Assembly: GCA_022703645.1 (NCBI GenBank)
Contig: JAKLDG010000001.1
Location: forward strand, 338,814-402,813
From: Patescibacteria group bacterium
GTDB taxonomy: Bacteria; Patescibacteriota; JACPGU01
Direction of reading: 5' to 3'
Length of the DNA stretch: 64,000 nucleotides
Part shown: piece by piece, positions 4,071 through 31,450 of the stretch
Layout of the letters: each line of letters begins with the position of its first letter
How positions within the stretch are numbered: position 1 is the stretch's first letter
Notes under the pieces: model-generated
Told to the model about the DNA's origin: nothing
What the model saw: only the letters and a program-made list of their open reading frames with translations
The model's database searches: none
Translations under genes and position numbers: made by a program

Positions 4071-4434
4071 GGTTTTTCCGCAAGTTTTTCAGTATTCCTT
4101 TTATTGTCGCGGGGAGTGTAGTTTTGGTACAAGTATAGTCACAGTATCCTAATTTAAGTAGTTCTCCCCCCTTCTTTTCAAAGGATGTGGGTATAATAAT
4201 TCTTACTTTAGGGTTTTTTTCGCGGATTTTTTCAACTAATTCTTTATAACGAAATCCGCGAATAGCGTCCTTTGAGGTGTACTTCAAAACGATAATGTCA
4301 TACTTAAATTCTTCCAAAACGCTTATATCCTTATTACTTCTTTTGAAAAAGATATCATGTTCCTTTAGTGAGATTGCATAGTGGGCTCGATAATAGTCCT
4401 CTCGTTCAACAATCAAAATCCCTTTCTTTCTCAT
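4057..4434 (-). CDS. Stand-alone receiver-like domain with degenerate phospho-acceptor site
   Basis: CheY-like alternating pattern. The expected acceptor Asp position reads DIIVLKY (Lys instead of Asp). Confidence 0.5.
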   Translation of the reverse strand: MRKKGILIVEREDYYRAHYAISLKEHDIFFKRSNKDISVLEEFKYDIIVLKYTSKDAIRGFRYKELVEKIREKNPKVRIIIPTSFEKKGGELLKLGYCDYTCTKTTLPATIKGILKNLRKNLIPK

Positions 4435-4526
4435 AGATATTATACCCCCCTTGTTTTTTTTAAATGAGCATCAAATAAAAAATAAAAAACCAGCATTTTG
4501 GTTTTATTTGTGTTATGTAATTTATA

Positions 4527-5219
4527 TTACAGGTTTTCTTGCCAAATGTCAAGAGCAATCCTTGCTGCCTCCTGTTCCGCAGCTTGTTTTGAAGACCCGG
4601 TTCCATCGGCAATCTTTTTATCTTCAAGATAAACACCCATTACAAAAACTTTTGCATGGTCTGGGCCCGATTCTTTTTCAACCTTATAGATTGGTGTAAT
4701 ACCTACTTTTTCCTGGGCTATTTCCTGAAACTTCGATTTTGGATCATAGTAAAGTTCCTTTGAAATAATCTCCGGTAAATAGGGAATTAAATACTTTTTA
4801 ATAAATTTACCCGCTGCCTCATACCCTTGATCAAGATATATTGCGCCAAGTACTGCCTCAAAGGTATTAGCAAGTATTAACTCTCTTGCTTTTCCAGTAG
4901 ACCTTGATTCTCCGCGCGATAGGAGTAGGTGGCTTTCATAACCAAGTTCCTTTGCTATTTTTGAAATCATAGTTCCTCTTACCAATGCCGCGCGCCAGTT
5001 TGTCAATTCTCCTTCAGGATTTGGGTAATTATTGTATAAATAGTCTGTAACAATTAATTCCATACATGCATCGCCAAGAAATTCAAGCCTTTCATTATGA
5101 TCAAGCTTGAAATCTTTATTTTCATTCAAATAGGATCTATGTACAAAAGCCTGCTGGAGTAAATCTTGATTCTTAAATTTTATACCTATTTTCTTTTCTA
5201 TTTCATTTAAATTGCTCAT
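4527..5219 (-). CDS. rnc: Ribonuclease III
   Basis: Signature ERLEFLGDA and a C-terminal dsRBD (SSKQAAEQEAARIAL). Confidence 0.95.
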   Translation of the reverse strand: MSNLNEIEKKIGIKFKNQDLLQQAFVHRSYLNENKDFKLDHNERLEFLGDACMELIVTDYLYNNYPNPEGELTNWRAALVRGTMISKIAKELGYESHLLLSRGESRSTGKARELILANTFEAVLGAIYLDQGYEAAGKFIKKYLIPYLPEIISKELYYDPKSKFQEIAQEKVGITPIYKVEKESGPDHAKVFVMGVYLEDKKIADGTGSSKQAAEQEAARIALDIWQENL

Positions 5220-6373: not shown

Positions 6374-6511
6374 AGCGTCAGGATCGCGTTAAACATTTCC
6401 AGCGATCTTATTCTCCTTGATTAAATTAATATTCTGTTAACTAATACATTTTACAATAAAATAAAACTTAAGTAAACCCCTTAGAATCCATTTGTATTTT
6501 ACGCTTTTAGT

Positions 6512-22343: not shown

Positions 22344-24521
22344 ATGTATTTGTATTTTGCATTTACAGGATTATTTAATGCTATAGTTAGCACTTTATTA
22401 GGTATTTTTGTATTTTTCAATAATTCAAAAAACAATATTAATCGCTCGTTTGCTCTTTTCTGTTTATTTTTTACGATGTGGTCTGCCGCATATATATTTT
22501 GGCCATTATCGCAAAACGCTGAAGGTACACTTTTGTCTTTTAGATTACTGCATATTGGCGCTGCTTATGTTTCTGTTGCTTATTTACATTTTGTTTGTAA
22601 TTTCCTGGATGTATATAAGCAAAAAAAAGTAATAGTTATAATTGGATATATTTTAGCATCTATACTAGTTCCATTTATTTTCACTCCATATTTTATTGCT
22701 GATATGGTTCCAATATTCTCAATGCGCTTTTGGGCAGTTCCTGGGATATTGTACCATTTTTATCTTGTGCACTTTTTTGGATATTTTGCATATTCGTCTT
22801 ATTTGTTATTTAAAAGTTATAAAAAATTATTGGGAGTAAAAAAGGTCCAAATTCTATATATTTTAGTTGGTTTTGTTTTGGCTTTTTTCGGGGGATCAAC
22901 AAACTATTTTTTATGGTATAAAATTAATATACCTCCTTATCTCAATATTCTTGCTTGTTCATTTGTAGTATTTACTGCCTACGCGATTGTAAAGACGCGG
23001 TTTTTAGACATCAAATTCGTTCTTCGTTCCTCTTTTGTTTACATTTCATCTCTTATTACAATTATTATCCCTGCAGTATTAATTAAGTTTATTGTTGGTG
23101 GGGAATCAGTTTTTAAAGCAACTGGATGGATTGATCTAATCATTGTTATTTTTGCCATTGCTGTATTTCCAAAAGTTAAAGAATATTTTTACAAAATCGC
23201 GAATAAGTATTTTTTCTCATCACTCTATGATAGCGCCGAAGTGATTGCAGACCTGTCTGATAAACTGCGATCAACCCTTGATATAAATAAAATTGATGAC
23301 TATATTACGAATGCTTTAATCCAAGCATTTCATTGCAAAGCGATTGGAATTTTGAATTATTCCAGAAGAACCGGGGACTACAACCTTGTCCATAATAAAG
23401 GGTTTGCGTTCAAGGGAAGAAAGAGATTTCTCGGCGATAAGGGATTGCACAAAAAATATGTTATGAAAGATGAACCTTTCCTGACATCCGAAATTAGAGA
23501 TAATCGCAAATATAAAAAGACGGTTTCTGTATTGGAAAAATTTGACGTAGAAGTTTTAACGCCGTTAAACGTTAAAGATAAGACAATCGGCCTTATCGCA
23601 ATCGGAGCAAAAGAATCCGGTGATTCATATAATCAACAGGATATTGAGCTTTTGGGAATTGTCAGCGCGCAGTCGGCAATTGCTATTGAAAACGCTATTT
23701 TATATGAAAAAACACGCAGATTTACAAAAACTCTGCAAGTAAAGGTTGATAATGCAACGGCTCAAATTCGCCACAAGAATGAAGAATTGAAAAAACTCGA
23801 TAAGCTCAAAGACGAATTTATTTCCGTCGCCAGCCATCAGCTGCGAACTCCGCTGACCGCCACGCGCTGGGCGCTGGAATTTCTGATTAAAGATAATAAA
23901 GGAAAACTCAACCGCAAACAGCTTGAGAGCGTTCATGAGCTGGAAGACACAAATTCAAAACTTATAAAACTCGTCAATTCACTTCTGAATGTCTCCCGTA
24001 TTGACGAGGGACGCCTTTCTATCACGCCAGTACCAACTGACATAGTTGCCGTGATGAAAGAAATCATGCATGAATTTGAACCGATTGCGCGCCACAAGAA
24101 TTTGAAAGTTATCACACACTATGATAAATTGCCAAAAATCAAATTTGATCCTGTTGTTATTAATAAAGCGATACATAACTTCGTTTCAAACGCGATAAAA
24201 TATAATAAAGACGAAGGCCGTCTTTGGATAAATGTCGAGAAATATGATAAAGATAATCTGGTTATCAAGGTTCGCGACGAGGGAATCGGAATACCAAAAG
24301 CCGAGCAGGCAAATCTATTTGCGAAATTTTACAGAGCATCTAATGCTGCTACTTCAAATACCGAAGGAACCGGACTTGGACTTTATATTGCCAAAAGCGC
24401 CGTAGAAAGCTCCGGAGGAAAGGTTTGGTTCGAATCAAAAGAAAATGAAGGGACAACTTTCTTTGTGACATTACCACTGAAAGGCAGTAGGGCGAAGAGA
24501 GGAGAAAAGAGCCTGGTCTAA
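22344..24521 (+). CDS. Sensor histidine kinase (multi-TM N-terminal sensor, GAF-like, HisKA, HATPase_c)
   Basis: H-box SVASHQLRTPLT, N-box NAIKYN, DEGIGI and GTGLGLYIAKS. About 7 N-terminal TM helices. Confidence 0.9.
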   Translation: MYLYFAFTGLFNAIVSTLLGIFVFFNNSKNNINRSFALFCLFFTMWSAAYIFWPLSQNAEGTLLSFRLLHIGAAYVSVAYLHFVCNFLDVYKQKKVIVIIGYILASILVPFIFTPYFIADMVPIFSMRFWAVPGILYHFYLVHFFGYFAYSSYLLFKSYKKLLGVKKVQILYILVGFVLAFFGGSTNYFLWYKINIPPYLNILACSFVVFTAYAIVKTRFLDIKFVLRSSFVYISSLITIIIPAVLIKFIVGGESVFKATGWIDLIIVIFAIAVFPKVKEYFYKIANKYFFSSLYDSAEVIADLSDKLRSTLDINKIDDYITNALIQAFHCKAIGILNYSRRTGDYNLVHNKGFAFKGRKRFLGDKGLHKKYVMKDEPFLTSEIRDNRKYKKTVSVLEKFDVEVLTPLNVKDKTIGLIAIGAKESGDSYNQQDIELLGIVSAQSAIAIENAILYEKTRRFTKTLQVKVDNATAQIRHKNEELKKLDKLKDEFISVASHQLRTPLTATRWALEFLIKDNKGKLNRKQLESVHELEDTNSKLIKLVNSLLNVSRIDEGRLSITPVPTDIVAVMKEIMHEFEPIARHKNLKVITHYDKLPKIKFDPVVINKAIHNFVSNAIKYNKDEGRLWINVEKYDKDNLVIKVRDEGIGIPKAEQANLFAKFYRASNAATSNTEGTGLGLYIAKSAVESSGGKVWFESKENEGTTFFVTLPLKGSRAKRGEKSLV

Positions 24522-24524
24522 AGT

Positions 24525-24563
24525 AAATTAAAAATTAAAAATCAAAATGTAAAATGACAGATG
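24525..24563. repeat. Left inverted repeat of the four-helix-bundle-carrying hairpin element
   Basis: AAATTAAAAATTAAAAATCAAAATGTAAAATGACAGATG. The 23 nt ATCAAAATGTAAAATGACAGATG recur exactly, in reverse complement, at 26941-26963. Confidence 0.7.
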
Positions 24564-24919
24564 CAAATTTTAAAAATGAATTTAAGAAAAGATTGTACTC
24601 GTTCGTTTTACGATTAATTAAATATATAAATAGTCTCCCAAGATCACAATCAAACGATGTTATAGGAAAACAACTGTTAAGAAGTGGTACGAGTATATTG
24701 GCTAATTTTATAGAAGCTAATTCAGCCAGCAGTAAAAAAGATTTTACGAACTTTTTTAATCATAGCTTAAAATCTGCCAATGAATCAAAGGTTTGGTTAA
24801 CACTTTTCCGCGATACAAACCCTATAAACAATGAGAATGTTTTTTTGATAAAAGAACTTTGCGAGATTGCAAACATCTTAGCATCAAGTATATTAACTTT
24901 AAAAGGAAAAAAGAAATAA
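24554..24919 (+). CDS. Four-helix-bundle protein (23S rRNA intervening-sequence protein family)
   Basis: Family-typical LRSGTSILANFIEANSASSKKDFTNFFNHSLKSANESKVWL. Confidence 0.8.
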   Translation: MTDANFKNEFKKRLYSFVLRLIKYINSLPRSQSNDVIGKQLLRSGTSILANFIEANSASSKKDFTNFFNHSLKSANESKVWLTLFRDTNPINNENVFLIKELCEIANILASSILTLKGKKK

Positions 24920-24975
24920 TTTTACATTTATTATATGTCATTTTGATTTTTGACATTTACATTTTACATTACATA
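24920..24975. repeat. Right inverted repeat of the four-helix-bundle-carrying element
   Basis: TGTCATTTTGATTTTTGACATTTACATTTTACATT, complementary to the left arm. Confidence 0.7.
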
Positions 24976-25047
24976 TTTTAACCTTTAAATTATCGATAAA
25001 TTATGCTAATATTACTATAATTTACAAAAACTAAGCAAACCGACACT

Positions 25048-26397
25048 ATGATTAAAGTATATAATACACTTTCAAGGTCTAAAGAAGAATTCAAACCTAT
25101 CGAAGAAGGTGAAGTTGGCATCTATTCTTGTGGACCTACGGTTTACAACTTTGTTCACATTGGGAACTTAAGAGCATATATTTTTGCTGATATATTGCAC
25201 AGAACTTTCCTTTACAACGGATATAAGGTGAAACACATAATGAATATTACTGATGTTGATGATAAAACGATTCGTGATTCTCGATCCAATGGGTTGACAC
25301 TAAAAGATTTTACAGACAGATATACTACGAGTTTCTTTGAAGATTTAGAAAAATTAAATATTAATAAAGAAGAATATATCTTTCCACGCGCAACTGAAAA
25401 TATTGATGGTATGGTGAAACTAATCAAGAAGCTTTTGGATAAAGGGTTTGCTTATAAAGCAGAAGATGGATCAATATATTTTGCTATTTCGAAATTCAAA
25501 GACTATGGTAAACTGTCCGGTGTCGATTTTGAACGCGACACTAAATCGAGAATATCAAATGATGAATATGCAAAAGATGAGGCGCATGATTTTGCTCTTT
25601 GGAAGGCTTGGGACGAGAAAGATGGGGATGTTTTTTGGGAAACAGATATTGGTAAAGGTAGGCCCGGTTGGCACATAGAGTGTTCAGTAATGTCTGAGGA
25701 TAACCTTGGACAGCCCTTTGATATTCATACTGGTGGAATTGATCTTATATTCCCTCATCATGAGAATGAGATTGCGCAATCTGAAGCTGCTAATGAAAAA
25801 ACTTTTGTAAATTATTGGATGCACAATGAAATGTTAATGGTTGATGGACAAAAGATGAGCAAGTCACTAAAAAACGATTACCGACTGAATGATATTATTG
25901 AAAAAGGTTATGAACCCTTAGTTTTTCGCTATTTAATGCTTTTTACGGGATATAATCAGAAACTTAACTTTACCTGGGATGCTCTAGAAGCGGCAAAAAA
26001 TGGTCTGGGCAATCTAAAAAATAAGATTTTATTATTAGGAAATGATATAGGGGAGGTTAGCGCAAGTCTTGTTGATGATTTCAAAAATGAGATTAACGAT
26101 GATCTTAATACTCCGAAGGCTCTCGCAGTCCTACAGGAAGTCTTGAAATCAGATATTACAAATGCGGATAAGCTCGCAACGGTTCTTGATTTTGATAAAG
26201 TTTTAGGATTACGGCTCGATGAAGTAAAATCAGAAACCATCGATATTCCGGAGGATGTGATTAAATTTGCAGAAGATAGAAAAAATGCTAAACAGGAAAA
26301 AAACTTTGAGCTTGCAGATAGTCTTCGCGCAAAGATAAGCGAAGCCGGATATGAGGTAGAAGATACGAAAGATGGTTATAGGGTTGTGAGAAGATAG
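25048..26397 (+). CDS. cysS: Cysteinyl-tRNA synthetase
   Basis: CGPTVYNFVHIGNLR (HIGH) and KMSKS motifs. Confidence 0.95.
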   Translation: MIKVYNTLSRSKEEFKPIEEGEVGIYSCGPTVYNFVHIGNLRAYIFADILHRTFLYNGYKVKHIMNITDVDDKTIRDSRSNGLTLKDFTDRYTTSFFEDLEKLNINKEEYIFPRATENIDGMVKLIKKLLDKGFAYKAEDGSIYFAISKFKDYGKLSGVDFERDTKSRISNDEYAKDEAHDFALWKAWDEKDGDVFWETDIGKGRPGWHIECSVMSEDNLGQPFDIHTGGIDLIFPHHENEIAQSEAANEKTFVNYWMHNEMLMVDGQKMSKSLKNDYRLNDIIEKGYEPLVFRYLMLFTGYNQKLNFTWDALEAAKNGLGNLKNKILLLGNDIGEVSASLVDDFKNEINDDLNTPKALAVLQEVLKSDITNADKLATVLDFDKVLGLRLDEVKSETIDIPEDVIKFAEDRKNAKQEKNFELADSLRAKISEAGYEVEDTKDGYRVVRR

Positions 26398-26464
26398 ATA
26401 CATTTGTAATTTGTCATTCAAATCCATTATGCTATAATCAAGCTATTAGAAATAAACAAAAACT

Positions 26465-26857
26465 ATGCCAACAAAAACCATAAAGAAAAAAAAGAAAGTC
26501 GCCATACTTGAAGATGATAAAATGCTGAATAAATATCTTGCGGCGAGTTTTGCGAAAGAGGGGACTTATGATGTTTGCGCGGCGCTAAATGGGGAAGAGG
26601 GGATAGCGATGATAAAAAAAGAAATGCCTGATCTAGTGCTTTGTGATATCATAATGCCAAAGAAAAACGGTTTTGAGGTTCTTGAAGCGGCAAAAAAAGA
26701 CGCGAAAACGAAAAAAATAATTTTTATAATGTTATCAAATCTTTCCCAAGAATCTGACGTGAAACAAGCAAAAAAAATGGGGGCAAAAGATTTTTGGCTG
26801 AAAGTAGATTTCGATACGGAGGCGATAGTAAAAAAAGTTAAAGATATTTTAAAATAA
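26465..26857 (+). CDS. Single-domain response regulator (CheY-like)
   Basis: ILEDD, acceptor DLVLCDIIMP, MLSN. No output domain. Confidence 0.85.
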   Translation: MPTKTIKKKKKVAILEDDKMLNKYLAASFAKEGTYDVCAALNGEEGIAMIKKEMPDLVLCDIIMPKKNGFEVLEAAKKDAKTKKIIFIMLSNLSQESDVKQAKKMGAKDFWLKVDFDTEAIVKKVKDILK

Positions 26858-26873
26858 CTTTTTTAACTTAAAT

Positions 26874-26983
26874 AAAAAATTAAAAATCAAAGTGCAAAAA
26901 ATTGGGGTTCCTGCGGAATGATATCTAATTTTTAATTTTACATCTGTCATTTTACATTTTGATATTTACATTTTACATTGCAT
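26874..26983. repeat. Solo (cargo-less) copy of the TGTAAAATG hairpin element
   Basis: Left arm TTAAAAATCAAAGTGCAAAA, short loop, right arm CATCTGTCATTTTACATTTTGATATTTACATTTTACATTG. Confidence 0.7.
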
Positions 26984-27020
26984 GGGATAATTATTAAAAT
27001 AAAAACAAAACTTTTTAATC

Positions 27021-28724
27021 ATGTTAATTGACGAGAAAAAACTAAAATCTATTCTAATAGACGCTGGAATAGTTGACGAGGCTGCTTGGGAAGATGTGAT
27101 AAAAAACGCTCACAGATTGGAGGTCTCTCCTGAAGATATACTCCGTCAGAAAGACATTATTTCCGGTCATCTTTATTATGAAATATTGGCGAAAGGCTTG
27201 GGAGTAAAATACGTAAACTTGAAGCGCCTCGAGGTTGATGAAGGAGTTCTCGATATTTTCAATGGCGACACTGTTAATAAGTACGGCGCTATTCCATTCG
27301 AGATTTCAAAAGAAAAAGGCTTGGGCAGAGCAAAACTGAAGGTTGCTTTTACCAAACAATGGGACAAGCAGATCTTAAGAACTTTGCAAATTAAAGCAAA
27401 AAGAAAAATCGAGCCTTATTTGACAGACGATATCAGTTTCCGCTCAATATTTGTTTATTACAAAAAAGAAGTCGCCGAAAAACTGAAAGTTCTTATTGAT
27501 AAAAAATCTCACGATCATACACAGTGCGAGGACTGTTTTGATCTTCTTATGGAATACTGCTACTACACCAGACCTTCCGACATTCATGTCGAAGAATTTG
27601 CAAATAGCGGTGTGGTAAAATTCCGTATCGACGGTTTTCTCCATGATGAATTTGAAATGGCGCCGCAATTGATTCAAAAGCTGGTTGAGATAATCAAAAA
27701 ATCTTCTGAAACCACTACCGACGAAGACAATCAAACTGACGACGGAAGATTTAGCGTAGAGGTATTCGATGAAGAATTAGCTTTCCGTGTTTCAATAATA
27801 CCGACTTATTTTGGTGAAAAAGTTTGTCTCAGAGTTCTTGATGATTCCAAACAAAAATTATCTTTGCACGATCTGGGTTTCAACGACTCGGATATTGTGA
27901 TGCTGAAAAAAGAATTCGAAAAACCTTATGGACTAATATTAATCAATGGTCCAACCGGCAGCGGCAAATCTACGACACTTTATTCTGTTTTGAAATTTTT
28001 GAATATTGAAGGCACCAGTATTGCGACAATCGAGGATCCGGTGGAATATCCGATCAAGCATATTAATCAAAGCCAAGTGGATGAGGAAAATGGGTTTACC
28101 TTTTCGCGAGGGTTGAAAGAGCTTCTACGCCAAGATCCTGATATTGTGGTGATTGGCGAAATACGCGACAATGAGACTGCTAGCATCGCCGTAAACGCCG
28201 CTCTGACGGGTCATATAGTGCTATCAACTATTCATTCGAATACTGCCGTAGGGACGATTTCAAGACTGGAGAATATGGGAATTCCAAACTATCTTCTATC
28301 CCCAACGCTCGACTTGGCGATTTCGCAAAGATTGATAAAGAAAATGTGTATTTATTGCCGGGAAAGTTTCACACCGGAGAAAAAATACCTTGATAAATTG
28401 GATCGCGATGTTGGGGTTTACGCATCTCTCGCAAAACTGAAAAAAATGGGGCTGATTAGTTATAAAACCTACAAAGACATTATTTTATTCAAAAACCATG
28501 GCTGTCCAAGATGCGGGGGCAAAGGTTTTACCGGTAGAATCGGTGTATTTGAAATTTTGAATAGCAACAAAGACATTCAAGAAATGATTTTGACCGGTAA
28601 AAGTGAATCACAGATCGCAAAACATGCCGAAAGCCAAGGAATGCTGACGATGTTTGAAGATGGACTTTTGAAGGCTCTAAACGGCATGACAACGATTGAA
28701 GCAGTAATAGATGTGGTCAGGTAA
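27021..28724 (+). CDS. pilB: Type IV pilus / type II secretion assembly ATPase (GspE/PilB family)
   Basis: T2SSE_N-like N-terminus, Walker A GPTGSGKSTT, Walker B DPDIVVIGEIRD, tetra-Cys CIYC...CPRCGGKG. Confidence 0.9.
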   Translation: MLIDEKKLKSILIDAGIVDEAAWEDVIKNAHRLEVSPEDILRQKDIISGHLYYEILAKGLGVKYVNLKRLEVDEGVLDIFNGDTVNKYGAIPFEISKEKGLGRAKLKVAFTKQWDKQILRTLQIKAKRKIEPYLTDDISFRSIFVYYKKEVAEKLKVLIDKKSHDHTQCEDCFDLLMEYCYYTRPSDIHVEEFANSGVVKFRIDGFLHDEFEMAPQLIQKLVEIIKKSSETTTDEDNQTDDGRFSVEVFDEELAFRVSIIPTYFGEKVCLRVLDDSKQKLSLHDLGFNDSDIVMLKKEFEKPYGLILINGPTGSGKSTTLYSVLKFLNIEGTSIATIEDPVEYPIKHINQSQVDEENGFTFSRGLKELLRQDPDIVVIGEIRDNETASIAVNAALTGHIVLSTIHSNTAVGTISRLENMGIPNYLLSPTLDLAISQRLIKKMCIYCRESFTPEKKYLDKLDRDVGVYASLAKLKKMGLISYKTYKDIILFKNHGCPRCGGKGFTGRIGVFEILNSNKDIQEMILTGKSESQIAKHAESQGMLTMFEDGLLKALNGMTTIEAVIDVVR

Positions 28725-28763
28725 GGGTCCAATTTTTAATTTTATAATTTTTAATTTTTAAAA

Positions 28764-28889
28764 TTGTCTAAAAAAACACGTACCAAAACCAAAACTTCAA
28801 CCATAACTGGTGTTCAAATGGGGCTTCTCATTTCGACTATTTTTATTATAGTTGGACTTTTTTATGCTGTTTTTAGCTTTTTTCAATAA
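28764..28889 (+). CDS. Possible small membrane protein (41 aa from TTG, or 23 aa from the ATG at 28818)
   Basis: Open frame with basic N-terminus KKTRTKTKT and one TM, LLISTIFIIVGLFYAVFSFF. Below the ORF-track size cutoff. Confidence 0.25.
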   Translation: MSKKTRTKTKTSTITGVQMGLLISTIFIIVGLFYAVFSFFQ

Positions 28890-28897
28890 AATAACAG

Positions 28898-29383
28898 CTA
28901 ATTTAGAAATATTAGAGCTATATTAATCATGATCTCGTAAATAATAACTATCAGATAGGGGACTAAAAGCAGTTCTGCTATTTCTGATATTTTTGAAAAT
29001 TTATATATAGTTAACGCGATAAAAACCAATAAAAGAATTAGGATAATTAAGCTCGCTCCCAAGGATCCTGCGACAAATAGTGATAGCGCAACCATCATAT
29101 TCAGAACGAACTGAGCTATGAAATATGGCATTGCATGAGAAATCTCTTTTGATTTATGATTTTGAACTAAAACAAAAAACAGAGACAGTCCCATCATTAT
29201 GTATATCACAACCCAGATGGAACTCAACGCCCAAGCAGGAGGCATAAAAAATGGCGTATTAGTCTCAGCATACCAGGCGGCTCTATGCGGAATAGCAAAG
29301 ACCGCGCCAAAAAAGGCTGGTATTTGGCATATCAGCATGCTCGAGAGTAATTTTGTACCAATCATTAGCCGGCTATTTTCCAT
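28898..29383 (-). CDS. TspO/MBR-family membrane protein
   Basis: Five TM segments. WYAETNTPFFMPPAWALSSIWVVIY is typical of TspO. Confidence 0.65.
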   Translation of the reverse strand: MENSRLMIGTKLLSSMLICQIPAFFGAVFAIPHRAAWYAETNTPFFMPPAWALSSIWVVIYIMMGLSLFFVLVQNHKSKEISHAMPYFIAQFVLNMMVALSLFVAGSLGASLIILILLLVFIALTIYKFSKISEIAELLLVPYLIVIIYEIMINIALIFLN

Positions 29384-29422
29384 GTTCTGAAATATTACTG
29401 CTAATTAAACGAAAAGAAGACC

Positions 29423-29647
29423 TCATAAATCGAGGTCTTCTTCGTTGAATTTTAGTTGGAATGAACCTTCTTTTATAATTCTGCCACCGCCGTTTATGCC
29501 ACGAACTAATGTCGCATCATTTAGTTCGATATCGAATTGTTTGGGAGTCCAAGGATGATCTTCCCCAGTTAATTCAAGCGCAGCCTTCTTAATTGCTTCC
29601 CACCCAGGTTGAAATTCATCTTCTTTTTGGGTGTTAGTGTTTTTCAT
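29423..29647 (-). CDS. Hypothetical small protein
   Basis: Intact ORF with GGAGG upstream. No family recognised. Confidence 0.4.
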   Translation of the reverse strand: MKNTNTQKEDEFQPGWEAIKKAALELTGEDHPWTPKQFDIELNDATLVRGINGGGRIIKEGSFQLKFNEEDLDL

Positions 29648-29668
29648 AGGCGTTCCTCCTAATTTTTT

Positions 29669-30085
29669 TTAACTCTTTGTTACCGGTCCATTTTGCAACT
29701 CAAATGGTAAAAATTCCTGTCCAAAAGGATCATTGTTACCAACTGATCCATTCAACCTCATATCTTGATTAATAGGCTTTTGCTCTCCAATAGTTACAGC
29801 GCCGCTTTTGATAACCATAAAGGCTATTGCGGCAATAACCATCAGAAGCACTACAAAACTTGCGATATTCGCCAAGATATTTTTGAATTTCAGCATTGAT
29901 AATCCCAAAAAAACGATCAGAATTGGCCAGAGCTTCCACCATTGGATATCGATATTGAGACTTAGCAAACCGGTGTTTTGTCCTAAAAGTATTAAACCGA
30001 TACCAATAATTAGGATACCGATCAACCATCTATTTGGTGAAAACCCACGATCATGATTACAATTTTCGTTGCATTGATGAGTCAT
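29669..30085 (-). CDS. LiaI/LiaF-like (DUF5668-type) membrane protein
   Basis: WLIGILIIGIGLILLGQNTGLL and further TM helices. Adjacent to the PspC-domain gene. Confidence 0.5.
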   Translation of the reverse strand: MTHQCNENCNHDRGFSPNRWLIGILIIGIGLILLGQNTGLLSLNIDIQWWKLWPILIVFLGLSMLKFKNILANIASFVVLLMVIAAIAFMVIKSGAVTIGEQKPINQDMRLNGSVGNNDPFGQEFLPFELQNGPVTKS

Positions 30086-30089
30086 TTTT

Positions 30090-30548
30090 TTATTTTTTAA
30101 AAATAATTGCTACGCCTAATAAAATAATAATCAATGGAAGGAAGATATCCCAAATATTCCAATTAAGAAATTGCTGAAGGAGCAATCCCACACCAATAAA
30201 AATCAGTATAACTGCCACAATATTGCGAGTCTTGGAATAATCTATCTCGCGGTTTTGGGTTTTGATTTCTTTTGCTATATCATTCACTTTGTCTTTTACA
30301 TCCTGCCCAAAATCCTTCAGCTTTTCTTTGATTTCCGGTTCTTTCGCATCAACAGCATCTTCTTCCGGTACAAAAATCGCTAAAAGAATATAAATAATAA
30401 TTCCAACGCCACTAAATAATATTAATAAAACAAAAATGACACGAACCAAAGTTGAGTCCATGTCAAAAAATTCGGCTAATCCTCCGCAAACGCCTAAAAA
30501 AATTCGGTCTTTTTTACTGCGAAATAAAGTTTTCGATTCTTTTTTCAT
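30090..30548 (-). CDS. PspC-domain membrane protein
   Basis: LFRSKKDRIFLGVCGGLAEFFDMDSTLVRVIFVLL. Confidence 0.8.
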   Translation of the reverse strand: MKKESKTLFRSKKDRIFLGVCGGLAEFFDMDSTLVRVIFVLLILFSGVGIIIYILLAIFVPEEDAVDAKEPEIKEKLKDFGQDVKDKVNDIAKEIKTQNREIDYSKTRNIVAVILIFIGVGLLLQQFLNWNIWDIFLPLIIILLGVAIIFKK

Positions 30549-30573
30549 AGTTTTATTATTATATCATAAAAAC

Positions 30574-30682
30574 ATATCAAAATGCAAATATCAAAGTGTA
30601 AAATGACAAATTAAAATTAAAAATGTATAATATGCCAAAGGCATACCAAAATTTTACATTTTGATTTTTAAATTTTAAATTT
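30574..30682. repeat. Solo copy of the TGTAAAATG hairpin element with GC mini-hairpin core
   Basis: Left arm ...ATCAAAGTGTAAAATGACAAATTAAAATTAAAAATG, core TATGCC-AAA-GGCATACC, right arm AAAATTTTACATTTTGATTTTTAAATTTT. Confidence 0.7.
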
Positions 30683-30685
30683 ATC

Positions 30686-31450
30686 ATGAAGATTATTTCT
30701 TTCAATATTAACGGCATCAACTCGGCCATCAAATATGGTTTGCGGGATTTTATATCTCTAGAAAATGCCGATATCTACTTGTTCCAAGAAGTAAAAAATT
30801 CCTGGGATACTATTGATGACTCTTTGCGGAAAATTCCGGGTTACGAAACATATTTTTACCAAGCAGCAAAAAAAGGATATTCCGGACTTCTTGCATACGT
30901 GAAAACGAAGAACAAACCAATCGGATACAAGGAGGGTATAGGGTTTAGGGTTATAGACGAACAAGCGAGAGTGCAGACATTAGAATTCCAGGATTATTAT
31001 TTAGTTAATACCTATCTACCACATTCAGGAAGGGAACTTGAGAAACTTCCATTCAAACGTGAAGTAAACGAAAAATTCCTCGAATACTGTGAGTCTTTGA
31101 AAAAGAAAAAGCCACTTATAATTGCAGGGGATCTGAATGTTGCGCACAAAGATATTGATCTCGCCAATCCTCGCGCCAATATGGGAAACGCCGGATTTAC
31201 GACGGATGAGAGAGATTTTTTCGATAAATTCTTATCCCACGGATATATCGATACATTCCGCGAATTTGTAAAAGAAAATGGCCACTATACCTGGTGGAGC
31301 TGGCGGACAGGGGTACGCGAAAGAAATATCGGTTGGCGCATTGATTATTTTCTCGTCTCTGAAAATATTTCAAAACGAGTGAAAAAGAGTTGGATTCTGA
31401 AAGACATTCTCGGATCCGATCATTGCCCGATAGGATTAGAAATCCTGTAG
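30686..31450 (+). CDS. xth: Exodeoxyribonuclease III
   Basis: FNINGI, LFQEVK, GDLNVAH, SDHCPI. Confidence 0.9.
   Translation: MKIISFNINGINSAIKYGLRDFISLENADIYLFQEVKNSWDTIDDSLRKIPGYETYFYQAAKKGYSGLLAYVKTKNKPIGYKEGIGFRVIDEQARVQTLEFQDYYLVNTYLPHSGRELEKLPFKREVNEKFLEYCESLKKKKPLIIAGDLNVAHKDIDLANPRANMGNAGFTTDERDFFDKFLSHGYIDTFREFVKENGHYTWWSWRTGVRERNIGWRIDYFLVSENISKRVKKSWILKDILGSDHCPIGLEIL

Follow-up and report, generated by a model that had tools for sequence, protein, structure and literature searches.

In a 64,000-nucleotide stretch of a Patescibacteria genome (contig JAKLDG010000001.1; the whole stretch is called the window below), a gene for a small four-helix-bundle (4HB) protein is enclosed by inverted repeats, and similar repeats recur nearby without a gene. 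What kind of element is this, and why does it carry this particular gene? The element belongs to a family of imperfect palindromes with arms made of 7-nt units; it carries the gene, and the two other members in the vicinity are gene-less. Across lineages, a 4HB open reading frame (ORF) framed by inverted arrays, whose 7-nt unit is specific to the lineage, is a conserved module, with gene-less copies in the same genomes. The module is embedded in the sense direction in operons or in rRNA insertions, and the sequence of its arms is under constraint. On balance, though with reserve, we lean towards an operon-embedded stem-loop module that is analogous to the S23p-bearing intervening sequences (IVSs) of 23S rRNA and whose pentameric protein may read the repeats.

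The initial annotation of the window had described the 4HB gene as bracketed by inverted repeats, with its start codon inside the left one. This is confirmed. The two arms (24523-24575 and 24920-24972) have 53 nt each and are 72% complementary, and the ATG at 24554 falls within the left arm. When 24519-24978 is folded as RNA at minimum free energy, the arms pair with each other and enclose the ORF. A hidden Markov model (HMM) was trained on 243 arms from other genomes, with the window excluded. When the 64 kb are scanned with this model, there are exactly six matches, which form three convergent pairs (E-values 8.5e-10, 1.2e-9, 3.2e-8, 4.8e-5, 7e-4 and 0.07). Among these are the left arm of the gene-bearing element (E 3.2e-8; E 3.6e-10 in another arm scan) and its right arm (24971-24922 on the minus strand, E 4.8e-5). 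By inverted repeat, fold and HMM, terminal inverted repeats form a predicted ORF-enclosing stem, as in an IVS.

Hairpins with the same arms but devoid of cargo had also been claimed nearby, and the six HMM matches bear this out. The hairpin at 26869-26986 consists of a left arm (about 26872-26898), a short G+C-containing centre and a right arm (26928-26980). The one at 30576-30688 has a left arm (30577-30624), a small central stem-loop (30628-30648) and a right arm (30651-30688). These two hairpins are in opposite orientation and have 47 nt in common at 91% identity; both match the gene-bearing arms over 23-28 nt at 96% identity. The 23-mer ATCAAAATGTAAAATGACAGATG has an exact reverse-complement copy at 26941-26963, as had been noted. 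Its 19-mer core occurs three times in the window (0.13 expected). A chance similarity of AT-rich sequences is rejected by this excess and by the independent arm HMM, and the arms are thus similar beyond their base composition, as the initial annotation had supposed.

All three elements lie within 6.2 kb (24519-30688), and the remaining 58 kb are without any. An independent assembly (a Logan contig, L217, which ends at 6510) stops inside the hairpin 26869-26986. Many 4HB homologues are found on contigs of about 1 kb, and the repeats seem to break short-read assemblies. For genome annotation, the arms would be one reason why assemblies of Patescibacteria genomes break.

The ORF in the loop is, judged by its substitution pattern, evidently a real gene under strong purifying selection: dN compared to relatives is 0.08-0.27, and dS is saturated. 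Its product exceeds the curated cut-offs of two family models, PF05635 (23S_rRNA_IVP; E 2.8e-18, 66.5 bits, cut-off 33.8) and TIGR02436 ("four helix bundle protein"; E 2e-22, 79.4 bits, cut-off 24). By sequence similarity, the nearest solved relative is PDB 2RLD (E 2.5e-15); PDB 2GSC, a further solved member, was reached through a profile search. The 4HB family has the motif GxxRxxxSxxxNxxE (PMC3936711). The protein from the window reads GKQLLRSGTSILANFIE, in which the RxxxSxxxNxxE part fits, and the G is five residues before the R, compared to three in the motif. The NCBIfam equivalog model specific for Avd yields 17.7 bits (cut-off 80). No reverse-transcriptase domain occurs in the gene table within 10 kb on either side of the gene, and neither an adjacent reverse transcriptase nor the template/variable repeats of a diversity-generating retroelement are present at this locus. 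The histidine kinase gene, the 4HB gene and cysS share one strand. No rRNA or other Rfam family matches the 64-kb window, and the element is located between two protein-coding genes rather than in an rRNA helix.

The arrangement is the same in close homologues. The best 120 homologues are 70-89% identical and mostly have 123 residues. Their N-termini, M[EQ]ND.xKFKNEFKKRLY, are arm units translated in frame. Seven independent loci with different gene contexts were read (the window, L054, L205, L206, L218, L221 and L224; Table 1), and the close homologues concerned have 71-89% identity. Each of the seven has one A-rich arm over the start codon and one T-rich arm that starts at the stop codon, and stop and start codons of neighbouring genes are often only a few bases from the arm ends. 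Gene-less hairpins cluster near the gene-bearing copies in L054, L218, L224 and the window. Third codon positions of the fourfold type are 38% identical, compared to 78% for the right (non-coding) arm and 77% for the left arm. Thus, the arm sequence itself is constrained. At L206 (about 1600-1690), the ORF immediately upstream of the element has KAFTDLKVWQEGVQIIEN at its end, which resembles the usual 4HB N-terminus. This ORF may be a fragment of another 4HB gene that was interrupted by the element.

Table 1. Features of the gene-bearing element, its surroundings and the gene-less hairpins in the window, and loci of close homologues with the same arms
Feature	Position	Strand	Remarks
Left arm of gene-bearing element	24519..24575	+	A-rich 7-nt units (…AAATTAAAAATCAAAATGTAAAATGACAGATGCAAATTT…); begins at the histidine kinase stop codon; holds the 4HB start
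4HB gene, 121 aa, S23p/Avd-like	24554..24919	+	PF05635 / TIGR02436; in the palindrome loop
Right arm of gene-bearing element	24920..24972	+	T-rich inverted copy of the 7-nt units; begins directly after the 4HB stop
Gene-less hairpin	26869..26986	.	Between a response-regulator gene and pilB; family arms
Gene-less hairpin	30576..30688	.	Between the divergent pspC and exonuclease III genes; family arms
Histidine kinase gene, upstream neighbour	22344..24521	+	Stop codon abuts the left arm
cysS, downstream neighbour	25048..26397	+	75 nt past the right arm
L054 (Terrybacteria)			Six elements in 8 kb
L205			Adjoins PrgI/TraC/VirB4 genes
L206			Adjoins a DUF4012 gene
L218			Three elements clustered
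L221			Between lexA and uvrA
L224 (Yanofskybacteria)			Two elements clustered

Gene-less hairpins are numerous. One genome per species was scanned with the 19-mer ATCAAARTGTAAAATGACA, which is present in at least 119 genome stretches, mostly from Patescibacteria. Among the matches listed, other labels of metagenome-assembled genomes, which are to be taken with caution, are Omnitrophota, Planctomycetota, Nitrospirota, Thermodesulfovibrionia, Chloroflexi, WOR-3, Gammaproteobacteria and Pacearchaeota. Some genomes among these matches have several copies, and the 4HB gene is absent at 129 of the 131 listed sites. Because of these 129 sites, it is rejected that the 19-mer simply represents the conserved 5' end of 4HB genes. 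It belongs to an imperfect palindrome with arms of about 53 nt (AAATKNAAAATKYAAAWATCAAAATGTAAAATGACAATGYAAAATTTAAAAAT), each with seven or eight 7-nt units and a sharp outer boundary. In Patescibacteria, these units are degenerate (AAAAT plus two variable bases) and are not exact repeats. In 78 arm pairs, the distance from the central TGACA to TGTCA is mostly 17-70 nt, with a tail of up to 670 nt. All 56 short gene-less elements have, on one strand or on both, a better fold than dinucleotide shuffles (mean z about -4).

Gene-less copies fill the spacers in which they reside almost exactly: the adjacent stop and start codons are about -15 to +20 nt away. Most of them (41 of 48) are located between co-directional ORFs, and only two of the 48 between convergent genes. 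An intrinsic-terminator scan calls neither the gene-bearing element nor the hairpin 26869-26986; in the hairpin 30576-30688, it calls only the small central stem (30628-30648). A function as bidirectional terminator is rejected by this gene context and by the terminator scan. The arms are also not a general feature of Patescibacteria spacers, which is rejected by an analysis of 813 kb from 80 other Patescibacteria loci with two weak arm matches and no 4HB gene. The distribution of the hairpin family is patchy. Viral contigs have no copy of the 19-mer, and no Rfam family matches the hairpin loops. Among ORFs inside the arms, only the 4HB gene was ever found, and no autonomous relative that encodes a transposase.

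Some of the heptamer-hairpin loops contain a second small palindromic element, in which the 9-bp closing stem (TGGGAATT...AATTCCCA) is conserved, the interior (about 70-120 nt) is variable and a few pairs are compensatory (L077 3957-4076, L110 5340-5503, L091 7606-7780, L039 1586-1763 and L056 4662-4800). This nested palindrome has no match in Rfam. A single AT-rich family arm is found at L024 (about 4420-4560) in a Chloroflexi contig with 60% G+C. A partner arm was not detected there, and the arm looks foreign.

Other 4HB lineages have the same architecture with other repeat units. For each 4HB gene, the best inverted repeat between its start region and its stop region was scored against dinucleotide shuffles. 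About 20 of 23 4HB loci across lineages have flanking inverted arrays, nearly all with period 7, and the unit differs by lineage. The initial annotation had proposed to check the other 4HB genes of the genome for the same inverted repeats; across lineages, most 4HB genes examined are flanked by inverted repeats. Overlooked at that time was the heptamer-array nature of the arms, which is a general signature of this family of 4HB loci. Among the 14 plasmid-borne 4HB genes that were tested from cultured bacteria, 11 are flanked by strong inverted arrays (z above 5) of tandem heptamers. The flanking heptamers are TAATTCG in Nostoc and Dolichospermum (perfect over 33-35 nt), GATTAGT in Bernardetia, AATCCCC/AATCGTA in Planktothrix, ATTTTAG in Gloeocapsa, TTCAAAA in Aulosira, and AATCTAA and GATGAnn in Chlorohelix; CAATTCG, GAGGTCG and AGATTGC each flank a plasmid-borne 4HB gene. 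Three published intergenic heptamers are units that flank 4HB genes. The association is specific: on a 50-kb Planktothrix plasmid with 41 genes, only the 4HB gene scores high (58, z 13.6), and all the others reach at most 26. The 4HB gene is co-oriented with the downstream gene in 22 of 24 loci.

The Yanofskybacteria assembly JACPNL01 codes for two distant 4HB paralogues (L021 3961-4326 and L224 2501-2872), which are about 30% identical. The L224 copy has arms of the AAAATGT type, whereas the L021 paralogue (31% identical) is framed by another inverted repeat, which is perfect over 30 nt (AATTATTCTAATTGACCTAATTATTCTAAT). As each of two paralogues from one genome has its own repeat family, the arms follow the protein lineage and not the genome.

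On the Planktothrix plasmid (L231; 3467-3582, 9774-9942 and 10315-10565), two opposed array blocks are present on each side of the 4HB gene (GATTTAC/GATTGGG and AATCGTA), and a gene-less array of 16 units is found 6 kb from it. Plasmid-borne 4HB genes of cyanobacteria and Chlorohelix (L227, L228, L230, L237, L240, L242 and L243) are often part of defence-like operons. Their contexts are a helicase with a DNA methylase, DUF1156 with Swt1-HEPN, or a position beside cas1/cas2. Genes of the 23S_rRNA_IVP family were reported earlier in cas loci (PMC3936711).

A prediction was possible for Xanthomonas, where GGGAATC is strongly enriched (186 sites, 70-75 convergent pairs), with no gene link given (Rehm et al., PMC4692102). 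If 4HB genes carry inverted arrays of the enriched heptamer of their genome, those of Xanthomonas should be framed by this unit. A partial sequence of XCC0516 (PDB 2GSC), obtained via the profile search, led to Xanthomonas homologues and to their loci. The prediction held. The XCC0516-type gene is located between accB and accC and is framed by inverted GGGAATN arrays. One array (GGGAATC GGGAGTG GAGAATC GGGAATC) begins 6 nt past the accB stop codon, and the other (CATTCCC CATTCTC GACTCCC TATTCCC) ends at the ATG of accC. The position of the 4HB gene between accB and accC is kept in Xanthomonas, Lysobacter and Rhodanobacter. Thus, the copy of the Xanthomonadales is old and stable and not recently mobile. 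The arm units are GGGAATC/GATTCCC in Xanthomonas and Lysobacter but GGGATTC/GAATCCC in Rhodanobacter. Both arms changed together in Rhodanobacter, which is arm covariation at an orthologous locus, with complementarity being kept.

The initial annotation had viewed the stem-loop-with-ORF design as independent of rRNA while pointing to the IVSs of 23S rRNA, where the protein family was first seen. Both points are borne out, the first of them for this locus. The window is free of rRNA, and the seven loci as well as most other 4HB genes tested have the same design. The parallel to IVSs is strengthened by the heptamers of the Coxiella IVS (see below) and by a gene-less family hairpin in a 23S rRNA gene. 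In a Saccharibacteria 23S rRNA gene (L011), a 465-nt insertion (567-1031) is located in a hairpin loop (model positions 2619-2626). It contains two heptamer hairpins (575-660 and 828-935), one of them with the 19-mer, and it folds very stably (z -9). Rfam makes no group I intron call in this insertion. ORFs of the 23S_rRNA_IVP family have been described in 16S and 23S insertions of bacteria from the candidate phyla radiation (PMC11270868).

From this arrangement, we infer RNA pairing in vivo, cleavage by RNase III, binding of the protein to the repeats, and the way in which copies spread. In the polycistronic RNA, the two arms would pair into a long stem and loop the 4HB ORF out, as an S23p IVS is looped from its 23S rRNA helix. 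By analogy with rRNA IVSs, RNase III may cut this stem. The 4HB protein, which is a pentameric ring in solved relatives, would bind the periodic stem of its own element and that of the gene-less copies. Element and protein would then constitute a module of a repeat and its reader, with a heptamer specific to each lineage. Stem mismatches are strictly periodic: the AAAA(T) blocks are almost never affected, while the intervening two to three bases mismatch in 60-90% of the elements. The stem would thus be a series of short A-U helices parted by regular internal loops.

Several observations speak against this interpretation. In 41 gene-less elements oriented by their flanking genes, only 70% of the stem positions are Watson-Crick pairs, and on the sense strand G-U pairs (96) do not outnumber A-C pairs (121; p = 0.10). 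In Patescibacteria, arms from the same element resemble each other no more than arms from different elements do, in a comparison that is biased by the selection for the 19-mer. Without such likeness and without a G-U excess, selection for pairing is not demonstrable in the Patescibacteria family. The fold of the hairpin 26869-26986 taken alone is close to that of shuffled sequence (z -0.4 and -1.6), while that of the hairpin 30576-30688 is better (z -2.9 and -2.2). Three of the 23 4HB loci (Treponema, Pseudanabaena and Anabaena cylindrica) have a weak array or no clear one. The S23p ORF of Coxiella is thought to be untranslated and decaying (PMC4990558). That a pentamer would match a heptamer array is drawn from analogy and is not a result.

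What else could account for these loci? They might be mobile elements at the DNA level. The gene-less hairpins would then be non-autonomous copies akin to MITEs (miniature transposable elements with inverted repeats), and the gene-bearing copy would be their parent and encode a mobility protein; the arms would be terminal inverted repeats with sub-terminal binding sites. That an IVS-encoded protein is needed for mobility is reportedly an old idea of Ralph and McClelland. Terminal inverted repeats and many dispersed copies are indeed found, as in MITEs, with many copies per genome, a patchy occurrence across phyla and near absence from the 813 kb of related genomes. The sharp outer boundaries, the unrelated contexts of close homologues, the assembly breaks at elements and the AT-rich arms in hosts with up to 60% G+C also fit. 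Both arms match one consensus, without covariation, and copies within a genome are 72% alike, compared to 64% between genomes (0 of 2000 permutations). However, a transposase or recombinase is missing, the sole ORF being that for a 121-aa helical bundle, and no conserved target-site duplication is visible at the boundaries. Viral contigs are free of the 19-mer, and the accB-accC copy has kept its position across Xanthomonadales. A spread was not recent, given the saturation of synonymous sites between copies. No element-free strain occurs among 11 and 8 contigs of the species, which were identified by identical 4HB and response-regulator proteins, and relatives are not syntenic; of 80 metagenome CysS loci (best 79% identity), none is syntenic with the window at the junction of the histidine kinase gene and cysS. 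The presence/absence polymorphism that the initial annotation proposed to look for was not encountered in these contigs, and its term "mobile" goes beyond what these data establish. We consider this explanation rather unlikely. A DNA operator system has slightly less appeal, and we judge it improbable. The 4HB protein would be a transcription regulator on double-stranded heptamer arrays, which regulates its own gene and has the gene-less copies as regulon sites near promoters. This would agree with arms that are constrained in sequence and not in pairing, with arrays that abut start codons, and with an enrichment of promoter-like hexamers (TTGACA/TTTACA and TGTAAAAT) in the region (43 versus 25.5 expected), of which the arms contain many. 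A study in Nostoc also infers a heptamer-binding protein near promoters (bioRxiv 10.1101/2022.06.06.494920). Yet, the -10-like motifs of the arms face inward to the loop and are overlapped by the 4HB start codon, 41 of the 48 elements are between tightly spaced co-directional genes and not at divergent promoters, the solved homologue Avd binds RNA, and both arms change together at accB-accC with their complementarity kept.

An incidental association, finally, is highly improbable in our view. Heptamer arrays would have arisen by slippage, the hairpins would be ordinary terminators or spacers, and the 4HB gene would merely happen to be located there. Heptamers are the commonest long simple repeats in bacteria, and a slippage origin has been proposed for them (cited in PMC4679880 and PMC4692102). 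In the hairpin 30576-30688, the loop resembles a small terminator. A coincidence is contradicted by the specificity of the arrays (one of 41 plasmid genes, about 20 of 23 4HB loci), by their orientation, which is always inverted across the 4HB gene, and by the different arms of two paralogues in one genome. In addition, conservation of the arms far exceeds that of synonymous sites, just two of 48 gene-less copies are between convergent genes, and the terminator scan calls neither the gene-bearing element nor the hairpin 26869-26986.

An RNA-level stem-loop module with a repeat-reading protein, which we prefer, may be taken one step further. As a tentative proposal, which we regard as possible but would not yet call probable, 4HB pentamers could be the missing partners of heptamer arrays in general (STRR, GGGAATC, GGGGATT, TTCAAAA and the AAAATGT hairpins of Patescibacteria). 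On the stems of inverted arrays, every protein lineage would recognise a 7-nt unit of its own, one per protomer. The gene would reside in one such stem, gene-less arrays would be targets in trans, and IVSs with an S23p ORF would be a special case.

The S23p/4HB family is very large, and we know of no role outside diversity-generating retroelements. Catalogues of intergenic heptamer repeats go back to 1990, and to our knowledge neither a mechanism nor an interacting partner has been identified. These two old puzzles may be one. If the 4HB protein reads the repeats, both puzzles become testable in cultivable organisms: in Xanthomonas at accB-XCC0516-accC, where a crystal structure exists, and in Nostoc. 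It would also explain the origin of ORF-bearing rRNA IVSs, and self-looping-out would explain why an insertion into an essential operon or an rRNA is harmless. The S23p-in-IVS stem-loop and the intergenic heptamer repeat families are already known. In a literature search without most subscription journals, no publication was found that links the two, nor one on operon-embedded gene-bearing and gene-less forms.

The intergenic heptamer families are among the known systems that resemble the hairpin family. They are represented by the cyanobacterial STRR, GGGAATC of Xanthomonas and GGGGATT of Nostoc (PMC4692102), by TAACTGA of Beggiatoaceae (PMC4679880), and by TTTTGAA of Nostoc, for which an unidentified protein was inferred to bind the repeats near promoters (bioRxiv 10.1101/2022.06.06.494920). 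The window family shares with them the tandem period of 7, the intergenic location, often with an end at a start codon, convergent pairs with the capacity to form stem-loops, and a patchy distribution. A known function or binding partner is lacking on both sides. Unlike the published families, the Patescibacteria units are degenerate and not exact, and 4HB/S23p genes are not mentioned in PMC4692102, PMC4679880 or bioRxiv 10.1101/2022.06.06.494920. The likeness to MITE-like elements lies in the imperfect palindromes, the many copies and the location between genes. Correia/nemis elements of Neisseria and ERIC/IRU elements of enterobacteria are MITE-like imperfect palindromes that act at the RNA level. 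They have about 100-130 bp and many copies, are located between genes and are co-transcribed, and longer variants have internal insertions. Unlike these, the window family has neither a target duplication of the TA type nor a related transposase among the elements found, but it has a 7-nt periodicity of the arms and, in a subset, a conserved non-transposase ORF in the loop.

With Avd of diversity-generating retroelements, the protein from the window shares a homologous four-helix bundle, but it lacks a nearby reverse transcriptase and template/variable repeats and stays below the cut-off of the Avd model. All five protomers of the Avd pentamer hold on to an RNA stem-loop via flipped-out bases, and RNA downstream of avd pairs with its 3' codons (bioRxiv 10.1101/2023.10.23.563531). 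For a pentamer that would read a periodic stem, Avd is the only precedent from structures.

A further close parallel is the S23p IVS. The host in the window is an operon spacer in mRNA and not an rRNA helix, the arms of the window family are long arrays of seven to eight units with periodic mismatches, and gene-less copies are numerous. IVSs of 23S rRNA with an S23p ORF were reportedly described in Coxiella burnetii and Leptospira by Afseth in 1995 and by Ralph and McClelland in 1993. In Coxiella, terminal inverted repeats form a stem-loop with the S23p ORF in the loop, RNase III cuts the IVS out, and two or three tandem GACAGAT heptamers adjoin the S23p start codon (Warrier 2016, PMC4990558). 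For the element in the window, cutting by RNase III is putative, and the ORF of the window family is under strong purifying selection, unlike that of Coxiella. In common are the protein family, the location of the ORF in the loop of an inverted-repeat stem, the sense orientation within the host transcript, the existence of relatives without an ORF, and the tandem heptamers beside the start codon, which are GACAGAT in Coxiella and AAAATGACAGATG in the window.

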